Virus record (IMG/VR): IMGVR_UViG_2663763280_000002
Coordinates: 1-4,142 of that record
Direction: 5' to 3' (one strand)
From: a virus
Taxonomy: Duplodnaviria > Heunggongvirae > Uroviricota > Caudoviricetes
DNA length: 4,142 nt
Each line of letters opens with the position of its first letter. Positions within the stretch are counted from its first letter, which is position 1. The notes below the pieces were generated by a model that was given only the letters and a program-made list of their open reading frames with translations, ran no database searches and had not been told where the DNA came from. Below are positions 1-4,142 of this stretch, piece by piece. Made by a program: the position numbers and the translations under genes.

Positions 1-1
1 G

Positions 2-433
2 GCTGCCGGAGGCGCTCAACAGGATGACGTGCTGATGTACGTGATGCTGTGGCGCATTGATGCCGGAGATTATGCAGGGGCGCTGGAGATCGGGCGTCAT
101 GCCCTGCGTCATGGCTGGGTGATGCCGCTGGGTAACCGCAACGTGCAGACCGTGCTGGCAGAGGAAATGGCAGACGCGGCGCAGAGCGCAATGCTTGCCG
201 CCACCGGCTTTGATGCCGATCTGTTGCTGCAGACGCTGGAGCTGACAGACGGTCTGGATATGCCGGACCAGTCACGGGCGCGTCTGCATAAAGCGATTGG
301 CGCTGTCCTGAGTGAAAGCAACCCGGCTTCCGCCCTTAATCATCTCAACCATGCGTTACAGCTCGATCCTCGCTGTGGCGTGAAAAAAGACAAACAGCAG
401 CTGGAGCGCAGACTGCGCAATGACAGCCGCTGA
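2..433 (+). CDS. M: Terminase small (endonuclease) subunit, gpM-like, C-terminal part; 5' end lies outside the window
   Basis: The reading frame is open from the window edge with no in-frame stop before TGA 431-433. The first start codon in frame is GTG 29, but the frame continues upstream, so the gene is 5'-truncated by the window. Assignment rests mainly on synteny: it sits immediately upstream of the L-X-lysis-R block, as in the P2 late operon (N-M-L-X). No diagnostic motif was verified. Confidence 0.5.
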   Translation, partial: AAGGAQQDDVLMYVMLWRIDAGDYAGALEIGRHALRHGWVMPLGNRNVQTVLAEEMADAAQSAMLAATGFDADLLLQTLELTDGLDMPDQSRARLHKAIGAVLSESNPASALNHLNHALQLDPRCGVKKDKQQLERRLRNDSR

Positions 434-528
434 CAGAACGTGCCCCCGCGCACGGGCGGCACGGGGTGGCGAAAGGCACTGCCACATCAAAACCCCGTCC
501 ACCGCCCTCTATTTCAGGAGAAAGCAGC

Positions 529-993
529 ATGAAGTTTGTTGCGCCAGAACAGGCACCAGAACAGGCGGAAATCATCAGGAATACGCCGTTCTGGCCTGAT
601 GTGGACCTGTCGGAGTTTCGCAGCGTGATGCGCACTGACGGCACGGTGACGCAGCCGCGTTTAAAGCAGGTTGCGCTGTCGGCAATTTCGGAGGTCAACG
701 CAGAGCTGTATGAGTTTCGCAGACGCCAGCAGATGCTGGGGTATGCCTCGCTGGCAGAAGTTCCGGCGGAACAGCTGGACGGCAAAAGTGAGCGCATTCA
801 GCACTATTTCAACGCGGTTTACTGCTGGGCACGCGCCATGCTCAACGAACGATACCAGGACTATGACGCCACGGCGTCCGGTGTGAAGCGGGGCGAGGAA
901 CTGGCGGAAGCAAGCGGTGATTTGTGGCGTGACGCCCGCTGGGCCATCAGCCGGGTGCAGGATGCGCCGCACTGCACAGTGGAGCTTATCTGA
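529..993 (+). CDS. L: Head completion/stabilization protein, gpL-like
   Basis: ATG 529 is preceded by AGGAG at 516-520 (8-nt spacer). The GTG at 466 used by the ORF track lacks an RBS. Stop TGA 991-993 overlaps the next start by 1 nt (ATG 993). 154 aa. Position between M and X matches the P2 order. Confidence 0.7.
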   Translation: MKFVAPEQAPEQAEIIRNTPFWPDVDLSEFRSVMRTDGTVTQPRLKQVALSAISEVNAELYEFRRRQQMLGYASLAEVPAEQLDGKSERIQHYFNAVYCWARAMLNERYQDYDATASGVKRGEELAEASGDLWRDARWAISRVQDAPHCTVELI

Positions 994-1196
994 TGAAAGT
1001 GCGTGCGCATCAGTATGACACGGTGGACGCGCTTTGCTGGCGTCATTACGGGCGCACGCAGGGGGTCACGGAGCAGGTACTGAAGGCAAATCCGGGGCTT
1101 GCCGAATACGGCCCCTTTTTACCTCACGGGCTGCAGGTGGAGCTGCCGGACATTCCGACCACCACCACCGTGCAGACCGTCCAGCTATGGGACTGA
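993..1196 (+). CDS. X: Phage tail protein X, gpX-like
   Basis: 67 aa ORF with ATG 993 and TGA 1194-1196. Same length class as P2 gpX. The sequence pattern (YGRTQGV...VLKANPGLAE...LPHG..VELPD) matches my recollection of the tail X family. Translationally coupled to L. Confidence 0.75.
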   Translation: MKVRAHQYDTVDALCWRHYGRTQGVTEQVLKANPGLAEYGPFLPHGLQVELPDIPTTTTVQTVQLWD

Positions 1197-1199
1197 ATT

Positions 1200-1415
1200 A
1201 TGACGCTTGAGCGAATCAGCGCCTTTATCACGTATTGCATCGCCGTCGTGCTGGCCTGGCTGGGCGATTTGTCCATCAAGGATGCCTCAACGCTGGGCGG
1301 TCTGATGATTGGTGTACTGATGCTGGCTATCAACTGGTACTACAAACACAAATCCTACCTGCTTCTGCGCGACGGGCAGATCTCGCGGGAGGACTATGAA
1401 TCCATCAATCGTTAA
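1200..1415 (+). CDS. Small class II holin, possible pinholin
   Basis: 71 aa. Two predicted hydrophobic helices (approx. residues 6-22 ISAFITYCIAVVLAWLG and 31-49 TLGGLMIGVLMLAINWYY) followed by a charged C-terminal tail (KHKSYLLLRDGQISREDYESINR). ATG 1200 lies 3 nt after the X stop. The 3' end overlaps the endolysin start by 20 nt. It occupies the holin position of the P2 lysis cassette. Confidence 0.7.
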   Translation: MTLERISAFITYCIAVVLAWLGDLSIKDASTLGGLMIGVLMLAINWYYKHKSYLLLRDGQISREDYESINR

Positions 1416-1908
1416 ACGCTGCCTTGTCGGGGCCGTGCTGGCTATTGCTGCCACGCTGCCGGGTTTTCAGCAGCTTCACACCTCCGTGGAGGGGCTGAAA
1501 CTGATTGCTGATTACGAAGGCTGTCGTCTGCAGCCGTATCAGTGCAGCGCGGGTGTCTGGACCGACGGCATTGGTAATACATCGGGCGTCATTCCCGGCA
1601 AAACAATCACGGAACGACAGGCAGCAGAAGGGCTGATCTCCAACGTGCTGCGTGTGGAGCGGGTACTGGAAAGGTGTGTGAAGCAACTGCCACCACAGAA
1701 GGTGTATGACGCTACGGTGTCGTTTGCCTTCAACGTGGGGACGGGCAATGCCTGCAGCTCCACGCTGGTGAAATTGCTCAATCAGCGGCGCTGGGCGGAT
1801 GCGTGCCGACAGTTGCCGCGCTGGGTTTATGTAAAAGGTGTGTTTAATCAGGGGCTGGATAACCGCCGTGCGCGGGAGATGGCCTGGTGTTTACAGGGAG
1901 CAAACTGA
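1396..1908 (+). CDS. K: SAR-type endolysin, T4-lysozyme-like (GH24) muramidase
   Basis: ATG 1396 is preceded by GGGAGG (1387-1392). 170 aa. After K7-R8 the N-terminus has a weakly hydrophobic Gly/Ala-rich segment (CLVGAVLAIAATLPGF) typical of signal-arrest-release domains. The lysozyme catalytic region is DYEGCRLQPYQCSAGVWTDGIGNT (Glu41 ... Thr56). Cysteines at positions 9, 43 and 50 match the pattern of P1 Lyz-like SAR endolysins. Confidence 0.85.
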   Translation: MNPSIVKRCLVGAVLAIAATLPGFQQLHTSVEGLKLIADYEGCRLQPYQCSAGVWTDGIGNTSGVIPGKTITERQAAEGLISNVLRVERVLERCVKQLPPQKVYDATVSFAFNVGTGNACSSTLVKLLNQRRWADACRQLPRWVYVKGVFNQGLDNRRAREMAWCLQGAN

Positions 1909-1909
1909 A

Positions 1910-2287
1910 ATGAAAAAGAAATTAATCAGCGGACTGTTTCTGATGTTATGGATGGCGCTGTTAATCGCAGCAATGGTGTATCCGCAGGGGATTTTTCCGG
2001 TACTGGCAGCGTCCGGCGTTTGGGTAGCCTGTTTGCTGACATGGGCGGTAATTCCGGTAGCACTGGCTGCGTTAATTAAGAATGGCCCGCTCTGGCAGGA
2101 GTTAAGGGCATCTTTACTGAAGACAATTACCCGAAAAGAAAACGTATTTATCAGTTGGGTGATGCGATTGCTGATTGTTGTAAGTCTCGCCTGGACGGGG
2201 TGGGCTATTACCCTGGTCTTTTATCTACTGACCGTTATTGCCTTCTGGATCACCCGTAATCAGATGGCGCAACAGGTAGCAGCATGA
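1910..2287 (+). CDS. lysA: LysA-like integral membrane protein, lysis-timing accessory
   Basis: ATG 1910 is 1 nt after the endolysin stop (TGA 1906-1908), with GGGAG at 1896-1900 (9-nt spacer). 125 aa with about four predicted transmembrane helices. Located between the endolysin and LysB as in P2. The GTG at 1838 in the ORF track would overlap the endolysin by 70 nt and has no RBS. Confidence 0.6.
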   Translation: MKKKLISGLFLMLWMALLIAAMVYPQGIFPVLAASGVWVACLLTWAVIPVALAALIKNGPLWQELRASLLKTITRKENVFISWVMRLLIVVSLAWTGWAITLVFYLLTVIAFWITRNQMAQQVAA

Positions 2288-2712
2288 ACCGGTTGCTGCT
2301 GGTTGTGCTGGCGTTATTACTGGCGGCGCTGGGCTGGCAGACGTGGCGGCTGGCTGATGCCAGCCAGACCATTAGCACGCAGGCAGACGAGCTGCAGAGC
2401 AAAAGCCAGGCACTGGCAAAGAGCAACAGCCAGCTTATCAGCCTGTCCATTCTGACTGAAACCAATAACCGGGAGCAGGCGCGGCTCTATGCCGAAGCAG
2501 AACAGACCAGCGCGCTGCTGAGACAACGACAACACCGGATCGAGGAACTGAAACGTGAGAACGAGGATTTACGCCGCTGGACTGATACTCCTTTGCCTGC
2601 TGACATTATCCGGCTGCGGGAACGTCCGACGCTCACCGGAGGTGCAGCTTATCGTCAGTGGTTGTCCGCGAGTGACACCGTGTCGGCTGGATCAGGCAGA
2701 GCCGCGCACTAA
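2284..2712 (+). CDS. lysB: LysB, inner-membrane spanin (i-spanin, Rz-like)
   Basis: ATG 2284 overlaps the lysA stop (ATGA). N-terminal transmembrane helix (LLLVVLALLLAALGW) followed by a Q/A/E/R-rich, coiled-coil-like periplasmic region. 142 aa. Contains the out-of-frame start of the lipoprotein gene lysC. Confidence 0.7.
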   Translation: MNRLLLVVLALLLAALGWQTWRLADASQTISTQADELQSKSQALAKSNSQLISLSILTETNNREQARLYAEAEQTSALLRQRQHRIEELKRENEDLRRWTDTPLPADIIRLRERPTLTGGAAYRQWLSASDTVSAGSGRAAH

Positions 2713-2845
2713 CGGTGATCTGAACGCGTTGTTGGATGAAACGGAGGCCGCCTGGGCGGTCTGTGCAGACAAAGTGGACATGATTATTGCGTGTCAGGAG
2801 CAAAACAGTGAACAAACCACAATCCCTGCGCCACGCCCTCAATAA
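2555..2845 (+). CDS. lysC: LysC, outer-membrane lipoprotein spanin (o-spanin, Rz1-like)
   Basis: GTG 2555 with GAGGAA at 2541-2546. Signal peptide MRTRIYAAGLILLCLLTLSG followed by the lipobox Cys21 (L-S-G-C); the residue after the Cys is Gly, consistent with outer-membrane sorting. Pro-rich C-terminus (TTIPAPRPQ). It starts inside lysB in another frame and extends 133 nt past the lysB stop, which is the overlapped spanin architecture. Confidence 0.7.
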   Translation: MRTRIYAAGLILLCLLTLSGCGNVRRSPEVQLIVSGCPRVTPCRLDQAEPRTNGDLNALLDETEAAWAVCADKVDMIIACQEQNSEQTTIPAPRPQ

Positions 2846-3239
2846 AGCGGTGCCTTATGTCCGCAATAACCCGGACAAACTGCATCTGTTTGTGGATAAC
2901 GGTTCGCTGGTTGCCACGGGGGCCAGCTCCATGTCGTGGGAGTACCGTTACACCCTGAACGCGGTGATTGAGGATTTCAGCGGCGACCAGAATCTGCTGA
3001 TGGCCCCGGTTTTGCTGTGGCTGAGGGATAACCAGCCCGATGCCATCAATAACCCGGCGTTACGGGAAAAACTATTCACCTTTGAGGTGGATATTCTGCG
3101 CAACGATGTCTGTGATATCAGCCTGAACCTGCAACTGACGGAGCGTGTGCTGGTCAGCACTGACGGTAGTGTGTCGAGTGTTGAAGCTATAGCGGAACCT
3201 GATGAACCTGAAGAAATGTGGACGGTGAAACGTGGCTGA
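2808..3239 (+). CDS. R: Tail completion protein, gpR-like
   Basis: GTG 2808 with AGGAG at 2796-2800 (7-nt spacer); the TTG at 2787 used by the ORF track is less likely. 143 aa. The N-terminus ([10 protein letters not shown]...[14 protein letters not shown]) resembles P2 tail completion protein R as I recall it. Stop TGA 3237-3239. The last few codons lie at or near the junction with non-phage sequence, so the integrity of the C-terminus is uncertain. Confidence 0.7.
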
Positions 3240-3244
3240 ACTGC

Positions 3245-3511
3245 AGACTGATGCACTCACTGGCGGTCACTGAACAACGCGCCAGCTTCAAAGCGTGGAC
3301 ATTACTGCTGGCAATCAGTGCCTTCTCGTTGTGTCTGCTGGGGACTTTCCTGGTGCGTTCCGGCGTGCTGGTATCGGTACACGCGTTTGCCTCTGATCCG
3401 GCACGCGGTATGTTTATCCTCGCCTTTATGGTACTGGTGATTGGTGGTTCGCTGCTGCTGTTTGCCGCACGTGGACACAAAGTTCGCTCACGCGTAAACA
3501 ATGCGCTGTGG
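3245..3511 (+). pseudogene. ccmF: Internal fragment of a cytochrome c maturation heme lyase (CcmF/NrfE family); no start codon context and no native C-terminus
   Basis: Translation [88 protein letters not shown] matches my recollection of the CcmF/NrfE region just after the Trp-rich WWD domain, including a His that would be the conserved periplasmic His. About 90 of roughly 650 codons are present. The frame ends in KTGT-stop at 3524-3526, which I do not recognise as CcmF. Boundaries are approximate (about 15 nt). Confidence 0.6.
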
Positions 3512-3613
3512 AAAACGGGCACTTAGCGTGGCAAATTGCGCTACCGGGGCACAACGCTGACGCAGCGTAGCGAGCTGTCCTTCCAGTTTTTCCAGCAGCA
3601 GGGCGGTTTTCAC
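3512..3613 (-). pseudogene. priC: 5' fragment (about 34 codons) of a priC-like gene (primosomal replication protein N'')
   Basis: The minus strand reads GTG (3613-3611) then [34 protein letters not shown], preceded by GAGGT about 5 nt upstream and an AT-rich TATCAT-containing region. This resembles the N-terminus of enterobacterial PriC from memory. The frame then runs into the ccmF-like fragment and stops (PQRIVYA-stop). Identification is less certain than for the other fragments. Confidence 0.4.
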
Positions 3614-3897
3614 GATAAGACCTCAATGAAAATGATAATTGTTATGCTAAAGTAGCCACTCTGTAAGCTGACAACACTCAATATGCAACGAATCATTTTA
3701 ATCATCATGTTGAACTGGTACAGGCAACCAGCGGCACGCTGATGATTTTGCGCCATACCGCACCGCTAAGTTCGGCTGATCGCGAAAAACTGGAACGCTT
3801 TTCGCATTCTGAAGGCCTGGATCTGTATCTCGCCCCCGATAGTGAGATACTCGAAACCGTCTCTGGTGAGATGCCCTGGTATGACTCAAACGGGTTT
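3614..3897. other. AT-rich non-coding spacer between the divergent priC-like and rluD-like starts; origin unassigned, possible promoter sequences
   Basis: No recognisable coding signal; the ORFs here are short and unrecognised. Local AT-rich stretch around 3620-3720 (e.g. TATCAT about 25 nt upstream of the minus-strand GTG). This may contain native upstream regions of the flanking fragments, or a further unrecognised fragment. Confidence 0.3.
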
Positions 3898-4002
3898 ATG
3901 GCACAACGAGTACAGCTCACTGCAACGGTGTCCGAAAACCAACTCGGTCAACGCTTAGATCAGGCTTTGGCCGAAATGTTCCCGGATTATTCACGTTCGC
4001 GC
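3898..4002 (+). pseudogene. rluD: 5' fragment (35 codons) of rluD-like 23S rRNA pseudouridine synthase D
   Basis: ATG 3898 followed by [35 protein letters not shown], which matches the N-terminus (S4-like domain) of E. coli-type RluD as I recall it. After codon 35 the frame continues as [16 protein letters not shown]-stop (4051-4053), which is not RluD and corresponds to the antisense of the next fragment. Confidence 0.6.
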
Positions 4003-4142
4003 CAATCGTTCCCTGGCCAGCAATCACTTTCGGATCATCGTAAGGTGGGATAAAAATACGACCTTCCATTTCGACAATTTCGCTCACTTTAGCGATAGTG
4101 TCGTTGAAATTATCACCATGCAGAACGACTTCTGCGGAGTAG
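4003..4142 (-). pseudogene. tdcB: Internal fragment of a PLP-dependent threonine/serine dehydratase (TdcB-like), running off the window end
   Basis: The minus strand from 4141 downward translates to [47 protein letters not shown], which matches my recollection of catabolic threonine dehydratase TdcB (fold-type II PLP enzyme). Homology ends at about 4003, where the rluD-like sequence begins. About 46 codons are present. Confidence 0.6.

Follow-up and report, generated by a model that had tools for sequence, protein, structure and literature searches.

A probable P1 Lyz-type SAR endolysin with a cysteine switch in the lysis cassette of a P2-like prophage

SAR endolysins of the P1 Lyz type have been known as a class since 2004-2005. 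The catalytic triad of the lysozyme family has the form E-8x-C/D-5x-T, and in P1 Lyz the triad cysteine is kept in a disulfide until activation (PMC3556154). Small, weakly hydrophobic residues are abundant in SAR domains (PMC9239132; PMC6116005). The key residues of Lyz in the P1 genome sequence are Cys13, Glu42, Cys44, Cys51, and Thr57; residue numbers follow the P1 genome record and the PDB alignment. The P1 mechanism as used here is drawn from PMC3556154, PMC6116005, and bioRxiv 10.64898/2026.09.09.750462, and a literature search on Cys13, Cys44, and Cys51 of P1 Lyz gave no relevant match.

Other SAR endolysins are controlled in different ways. R21 of phage 21 (3HDE/3HDF) and RrrD of DLP12 (4ZPU) are homologous GH24 enzymes with an N-terminal SAR segment, and they are activated by release from the membrane. 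They make up class II, in which the triad is E-D-T, the SAR segment is free of cysteine, and disulfides play no part in control. In Lyz103 of Erwinia phage Era103, the SAR cysteine is C12, the catalytic glutamate lies in the sequence C42-E43-G44-C45, and the triad contains Asp52. According to Kuty et al. in 2010, its caging disulfide is reportedly C42-C45.

Orthologues of the endolysin analyzed here are found in Klebsiella phage KP12 (KP12.peg.319) and in phage 4LV2017, within a 3.2-kb region that shares 97-98% identity. PMC9902359 likens KP12.peg.319 to P1 Lyz (TM-align 0.83) and notes a conserved SAR domain like that of P1 Lyz; the purified protein is lytic in spot tests, and a pinholin partner was sought. 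The accessible portion of that paper contains no discussion of the cysteine pattern or of disulfide control for the KP12 endolysin. Our comparison with these systems indicates that the endolysin of a P2-like (Peduoviridae) prophage cassette is likely to be a SAR endolysin of the P1 Lyz type (class I) with a cysteine switch.

The endolysin belongs to a complete, ordinary P2-type lysis cassette of a P2-like prophage. The window, by which we mean the whole stretch of 4,142 nucleotides that was analyzed, begins with a single collinear block (1-3247) that has 97-98% identity to the late region of Klebsiella and E. coli phages and prophages of the P2-like (Peduoviridae) type. Named matches for this block are Klebsiella phage 4LV2017 (Elveevirus), KP12, and E. 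coli CP019275. Gene order was assigned from Pfam and PHROG scans (Table 1). Genes for a holin, an endolysin, LysA, LysB, and LysC lie between gpX and gpR, and the identical order is annotated in the 4LV2017 and KP12 records. The PF16080 score of the holin is above the cut-off, while its match to PF04971 (phage 21 holin S) is weak and sub-threshold. The 3' end of the holin gene overlaps the start of the endolysin gene by 20 nt, covering endolysin codons 1-7. We take the holin and the endolysin to be of families other than P2 Y and K. The LysA-like gene occupies the position of P2 lysA in 4LV2017 and KP12, and its product probably modulates the timing of lysis. The translated o-spanin has the lipobox LLTLSG|C, and the spanin genes show the overlapped arrangement.

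Table 1. Genes and endolysin elements identified in the window, in window coordinates
Feature	Position	Strand	Evidence or remarks
gpM (small terminase), 3' end only	before gpL		
gpL	529-993		
gpX	993-1196		
Class II (two-TMD) holin, 71 aa	1200-1415	+	PF16080 HP1 holin family, 33 bits; phrog_20
Endolysin, GH24 / T4-lysozyme-like muramidase, 170 aa	1396-1908	+	PF00959; phrog_7
Endolysin n-region M1-R8 (MNPSIVKR)	1396-1419	+	positive charges Lys7-Arg8
Endolysin apolar SAR-like segment C9-F24, CLVGAVLAIAATLPGF	1420-1467	+	16 residues, 44% Gly/Ala/Ser/Thr
Codon of Cys9	1420-1422		TGC
Endolysin active-site block E41-G-C43-x6-C50-x5-T56	1516-1563	+	aligns with P1 Lyz E42/C44/C51/T57
Codon of Glu41	1516-1518		GAA
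Codon of Cys43	1522-1524		TGT
Codon of Cys50	1543-1545		TGC
Codon of Thr56	1561-1563		ACC
LysA-like polytopic membrane protein, 125 aa	1910-2287	+	phrog_162, E = 8e-44; hydrophobic segments
i-spanin (LysB / Rz-like)	2284-2712	+	phrog_89, E = 1e-44; annotated as P2 LysB-like in NC_047818
o-spanin (LysC / Rz1-like) lipoprotein	2555-2845	+	PF23793 LysC, 58.8 bits; phrog_952
gpR	2808-3239		

Two further observations concern the surroundings of the endolysin gene. In the final 900 bases of the window, short fragments of E. coli core genes that are not linked to each other (ccmF, priC/ybaN, rlmD, probably rluD, and tdcB) are patched together, which indicates that the window is chimeric to the right of 3247. 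A 296-aa endolysin-LysA "fusion" was also considered as a real or programmed product. It was rejected because the frameshifts vary in position near the 3' end and most of the sequences are singletons; many 296-aa proteins in the databases are frameshift fusions of this kind, which represent errors or pseudogenes.

The endolysin combines a lysozyme domain with a single, weakly apolar stretch at the N-terminus. Its open reading frame starts with ATG. The T4-lysozyme-like catalytic domain is recognized by PF00959 over residues 39-161, with a score of 133.7 bits (cut-off 22.3), and by a fold match to 1xjt/1xju. There are seven cysteines, at positions 9, 43, 50, 94, 120, 137, and 165. The first-pass annotation had pointed to Cys9 in the SAR segment, Cys43 two residues after Glu41 in an E-G-C motif, and Cys50, and reading of the codons in the DNA confirms all three; the other four were absent from it. 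Glu41, Cys43, and Cys50 are placed as described there, but Cys50 is not a mere neighbor of the active site, since by the family definition of the triad it is the middle catalytic residue of E41/C50/T56. Cys43 is its predicted caging partner, while Cys94, Cys120, Cys137, and Cys165 may form structural disulfides.

The composition of the N-terminal stretch resembles that of known SAR domains. C9-F24 is the only apolar stretch of the protein, and Cys9 is its first residue, directly behind Lys7-Arg8. On simple hydrophobicity scales it is the shortest and least hydrophobic of the membrane segments in the cassette; these values were approximated on the Kyte-Doolittle and Hessa scales. The Lys-Arg pair is followed by a weakly hydrophobic stretch rich in Gly, Ala, Ser, and Thr, a composition that fits the published description of SAR domains. 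With 16 residues the stretch is short for a membrane span, and it also resembles the h-region of a Sec signal peptide, so that composition by itself does not tell the two apart.

Among proteins of solved structure P1 Lyz is the closest in both sequence and fold. Alignment to P1 Lyz had been proposed as a check in the first-pass annotation, and the best matches among all solved structures are its two entries, 1xjt (E = 5.5e-26) and 1xju (E = 1.4e-24). Overall identity between the two enzymes is 38%. Like the window endolysin, P1 Lyz has seven cysteines, the GH24 fold, an E-8x-C-5x-T triad, and a second cysteine at Glu+2, and both have an N-terminal Gly/Ala-rich apolar segment with a cysteine about 30 residues ahead of the glutamate. 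For the active site, the claim of a P1 Lyz-like cysteine spacing holds in both HMMER and BLASTP alignments, where E41/C43/C50/T56 fall column for column on P1 E42/C44/C51/T57 with an offset of one residue. The active-site block is identical to that of P1 at 18 of 22 residues (EGCRLQPYQCSAGVWTDGIGNT vs EGCRRDPYMCPAGVWTDGIGNT). Cysteines 43, 50, 137, and 165 align with P1 cysteines, and C94 does so in one of the two pairwise alignments.

The equivalence of the SAR cysteines is seen in the family alignment. In the pairwise alignments with P1 Lyz, Cys9 is not opposite Cys13, because there is a 3-residue gap in the query's segment. When nine family members, P1 Lyz among them, are aligned with MAFFT, Cys9 and P1 Cys13 share one invariant column. 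The two enzymes also differ in several respects. The SAR cysteine lies 32 residues ahead of the glutamate (Glu-32) in the window endolysin and 29 residues ahead (Glu-29) in P1 Lyz, and it is found directly behind Lys-Arg at the cytoplasmic edge in the former but nine residues past the last lysine in the latter. The apolar stretch has 16 residues compared with 20 in P1 Lyz, and the insertion of about 11 residues that P1 Lyz has after the FNxG motif is missing. The genetic context is different as well. P1 lyz adjoins lydD in the P1 genome and is located away from the P1 holin gene lydA (PMC9025707), whereas the window endolysin adjoins an HP1-family class II holin in a P2-type cassette.

A structure model is consistent with the sequence comparison. 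The AF2 model, built from an alignment of 45 sequences, has an overall pLDDT of 78.5. Its best fold match is 1xjt, the full-length active P1 Lyz with the N-terminal segment kept (TM 0.71), compared with a TM of 0.57 for 1xju, the secreted inactive form. Further matches are, in order, 1xju, DLP12 RrrD, and R21. Residues 11-30 are modeled as helices with a pLDDT of 76-91, and pLDDT is below 50 over the catalytic loop (residues 44-58 and 63-68).

The cysteines of the endolysin distinguish it from the other types of SAR endolysin. It has the three regulatory-type cysteines of class I, in the middle of the triad (Cys50), at Glu+2 (C43), and in the SAR segment (C9). R21 and RrrD have no cysteine in the triad or in the SAR segment, and with Cys50 in mid-triad and Cys9 present the enzyme falls outside class II. 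Lyz103 and the window endolysin share the SAR cysteine and the Glu+2 cysteine (C45 in Lyz103). However, the residue at Glu-1 is a cysteine in Lyz103 and Tyr40 in the window endolysin, and the triad has Asp in the former and Cys50 in the latter. Caging of the Lyz103 type was rejected for the window endolysin because of Tyr40 at Glu-1 and Cys50 in the triad.

All seven cysteines are highly conserved. They are invariant in 45 full-length homologues of 56-99% identity and also in 56 distinct prophage alleles from IMG/VR, a set of loci with 92-99% identity that was used for checking codon positions. The four residues of the active site (E41, C43, C50, and T56) are likewise invariant in both sets. 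Mean column identity in the 45 homologues is 80%, and position 10, beside Cys9, can be L, A, S, I, M, or T. The invariance of the seven cysteines against this background indicates that the pattern is not due to chance. M1 and R8 are found in 45 of 45 homologues and K7 in 43.

The SAR cysteine co-varies with the type of active site in more distant relatives. The 50%-identity representatives were searched exhaustively, which yielded 108 relatives that were usable and non-redundant. In 22 of them a hydrophobic N-terminus is combined with cysteines at Glu+2 and Glu+9, and 18 of these 22 have a cysteine at Glu-30 to Glu-32. The four exceptions have short N-termini with the glutamate at position 28-36, so that three of them cannot reach the cysteine position, and their N-termini look like the result of mis-called starts. 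In another six representatives the N-terminus is hydrophobic but the triad is without cysteine (five with Asp, one with Pro), and none of them has a cysteine at Glu-30 to Glu-32. The difference (18/22 vs 0/6) is significant by Fisher's test (p = 5.6e-4). No representative was found to have a hydrophobic N-terminus and a catalytic cysteine without the Glu+2 cysteine. This linkage of the N-terminal segment, its cysteine, and the Cys/Cys active site is a prediction of the P1 mechanism. On the other hand, 24 representatives that begin directly with the globular domain, and so lack a hydrophobic N-terminus, also have the Cys(+2)/Cys(+9) pair. Since the pair occurs without a SAR segment, it is not by itself a sign of caging; the argument for caging depends on finding the pair, the N-terminal segment, and the cysteine of that segment together.

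Several other explanations of these features have to be considered. The enzyme could be a SAR endolysin that is governed by topology and refolding only, as R21 is, with cysteines that are catalytic (Cys50) or structural and do not isomerize. Enzymes of the R21 type are homologous and common, as seen in the 3hde and 3hdf matches, the four extra invariant cysteines suggest structural disulfides, and the Cys(+2)/Cys(+9) pair need not have arisen for caging, given its presence in relatives that are not SAR endolysins. However, the R21 type is defined by an E-D-T triad and a SAR segment without cysteine (bioRxiv 10.64898/2026.09.09.750462), while the window endolysin has E-C-T. In addition, the SAR cysteine is invariant, keeps a fixed spacing to the glutamate, and co-varies with the Cys-type site, and a single catalytic thiol next to a second cysteine is expected to oxidize in the oxidizing periplasm. 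Control by refolding only is quite unlikely in view of these points. The N-terminus could also be an ordinary cleavable Sec signal peptide, as in Lys44-like enzymes, leaving a soluble periplasmic enzyme after maturation that is under a different kind of control. Its n-region with KR, its short apolar core of 13-16 residues, and the helix breaker at Pro22-Gly23 are all compatible with a signal peptide, and A16-I17-A18 resembles an AXA motif. This motif, however, lies midway along the apolar core, and positions 16-18 vary in the 45 homologues (GLM, AIV, and TLA are found), so no signal-peptidase site is maintained there. A cleaved peptide would leave no reason for an invariant cysteine that co-varies with the active-site cysteines, suggesting that the segment is retained in the functional protein, and the AF2 model, in which residues 11-30 pack onto the lysozyme domain as they do in full-length active P1 Lyz, also speaks against removal. 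Cleavage is thus very unlikely. The first-pass annotation had named two outcomes that would count against a P1 Lyz-like enzyme, cysteines not equivalent in position to those of P1 Lyz and an N-terminus that behaves as a cleavable signal peptide or a stable TM anchor. The sequence evidence points to neither, because the family alignment (though not the pairwise ones) matches the cysteines and no signal-peptidase motif is conserved past the apolar stretch.

The choice of start codon also affects the interpretation. RefSeq record NC_047818 (4LV2017) annotates the start of the endolysin at an internal GTG, which corresponds to window position 1435. Translation from this codon would give a protein of 157 aa without Cys9 and with half of the apolar segment, in other words a cytoplasmic, holin-dependent lysozyme. 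The spacer between GGGAGG (1387-1392) and the ATG at 1396 is only 3 nt, which is in favor of the later start. Nevertheless, GTG 1435 has no good Shine-Dalgarno sequence upstream, while GGGAGG does precede ATG 1396, and the KP12 record has the ATG start. Conservation of M1, K7, R8, and C9 extends to homologues with as little as 56% identity, and the length of the reading frame is held at 169-172 aa in the homologues. Third-position changes are the largest class among codons 8-13 in the 56 prophage alleles (4 of 7 variable sites); codons 1-7, which overlap the holin gene, hardly vary among these alleles. The start at GTG 1435 was rejected because the residues upstream of it are conserved, and we consider it extremely improbable.

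Overall it appears that the P1 mechanism can be applied to this endolysin, with export, membrane tethering, non-cleavage, release, and disulfide exchange all predicted from homology. The Lys-Arg pair and the 16-residue Gly/Ala-rich stretch would engage Sec and bring the lysozyme domain to the periplasm without the holin. The N-terminus would remain uncleaved, tethering the endolysin in an N-in/C-out orientation. In the tethered form, a disulfide between Cys43 and Cys50 would be present in the oxidizing periplasm, removing Cys50 from the E41/C50/T56 triad, and Cys9 would be a free thiol at the cytoplasmic edge of the bilayer. Depolarization of the membrane by the adjacent class II holin would then let the weak SAR segment slip free. 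Cys9 could now attack the Cys43-Cys50 disulfide, forming Cys9-Cys43 and freeing Cys50, and the active enzyme would be completed as the released segment packs against the globular domain. Lysis would be finished by the spanins LysB and LysC.

Beyond the P1 Lyz-type assignment, the Enterobacteriaceae P2-like clade might represent a distinct sub-type of cysteine-switched SAR endolysins, and the cysteine pair might at the same time be an older off-switch of GH24 enzymes. The marks of the sub-type may be its unusually short segment of 16 residues and a thiol directly behind Lys-Arg at the cytoplasmic face. Contact with the cytoplasm, and not burial in the bilayer, may keep this thiol reduced. Such a segment may leave the membrane unusually easily, giving a largely holin-independent, "leaky" lysis that is tuned by LysA. 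The presence of the pair in many relatives without a SAR segment makes it possible that Cys(+2)/Cys(+9) is of older origin and serves GH24 lysozymes with a Cys triad as a general redox off-switch, and SAR enzymes may have added the third cysteine later. Taken together, this combined proposal is unlikely.

Prophages of Escherichia coli, Klebsiella, Salmonella, Citrobacter, Enterobacter, and Pantoea very commonly carry this endolysin. Its homologues form hundreds of clusters in the databases, some of which exceed 1,000 members, and there are more than 595 IMG/VR loci. A profile search for more diverse relatives returned mainly the same clade. From PMC9902359 the orthologue's likeness to P1 Lyz, its SAR domain, and its lytic activity are already known. 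What is new here is that the cysteines are explicitly assigned, their co-variation is put into statistics, and the start codon is corrected.

The assignment has consequences for antibacterial use and for annotation. Full-length endolysin is probably toxic when expressed as an antibacterial, due to Sec export, and its activity is probably set by the redox state and by which cysteines are present. The late start in the RefSeq record of 4LV2017 deletes Cys9, the predicted regulatory cysteine. Cysteine-switched SAR endolysins are a well-described class, and the finding that the window endolysin very probably belongs to it is correct but ordinary. It adds no new principle beyond P1 Lyz, and its practical value lies in correct annotation.

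The conservation of N-terminal residues supports ATG 1396 as the probable start codon of the endolysin. M1, K7, R8 and C9 are kept in homologues down to 56% identity, and the endolysin in the Klebsiella phage KP12 record begins at ATG. In the RefSeq record of Klebsiella phage 4LV2017 (NC_047818), the orthologue is started at an internal GTG (position 2935 of that record, window 1435). This start removes M1-A13 (window 1396-1434), including the conserved Cys9 of the SAR-like segment. Four further cysteines (94, 120, 137 and 165) are all invariant in homologues of 56-99% identity. Cysteines of P1 Lyz align with C137 and C165, and one lies opposite C94 in only one of two pairwise alignments. The seven cysteines of the endolysin would allow three disulfides and one free catalytic thiol.

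Database proteins that join the endolysin to other sequences, among them P0006, P0014 and P0018, look like products of sequencing errors or decayed prophages. About 30 proteins of 296 aa consist of the endolysin fused to LysA, and in others a gpD-like or tape-measure-like sequence is attached to its residues 1-155. The LysA fusions arise by 1-nt frameshifts near codons 160-166 (window 1870-1910), and since the sites differ between these proteins, a programmed fusion was rejected.

The holin of the lysis cassette has two TMDs, the second carrying a GGxxxG motif, and matches the HP1 holin family, while its match to the phage 21 holin S (pinholin family) is below threshold. The 125-aa LysA-like protein is a polytopic membrane protein that PHROG 162 and the RefSeq record of 4LV2017 call an endolysin. 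This label is misleading because the protein lacks an enzyme domain. It adjoins the SAR endolysin, and its candidate roles are antiholin or release modulator. The o-spanin, read from GTG 2555, has a lipoprotein signal and the lipobox LLTLSG|C; the KP12 annotation (4172-4345 of that record) covers only the final 57 codons, without the signal.

Features of the window
Feature	Window position	Remark
Holin	1200-1415
Endolysin	1396-1908	+ strand
LysA-like protein	1910-2287
o-spanin	2555-2845
ccmF piece	3240-3511
priC/ybaN piece	3512-3708
rlmD piece	3735-3896
rluD N-terminus	~3897-4001	probable, identified by translation
tdcB piece	4002-4142

The right end of the window (3240-4142) is non-phage DNA, a mosaic of 100-270-bp fragments from core genes of E. 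coli that are not linked to one another. Similarity to phages stops at 3247, directly past the gpR stop codon. The source genes are megabases apart in complete genomes, showing that the window is a chimera, which arose as an assembly, library or construction artefact.

Among 108 representatives of the endolysin relatives (50%-identity clusters), 24 have the Glu/Cys(+2)/Cys(+9)/Thr motif (E41, C43, C50 and T56 of the endolysin) without an N-terminal hydrophobic segment, for example P0165, P0170, P0177 and P0182. Many of these 24, which would be cytoplasmic enzymes, have C-terminal extensions. The active-site Cys pair is therefore not confined to SAR endolysins.
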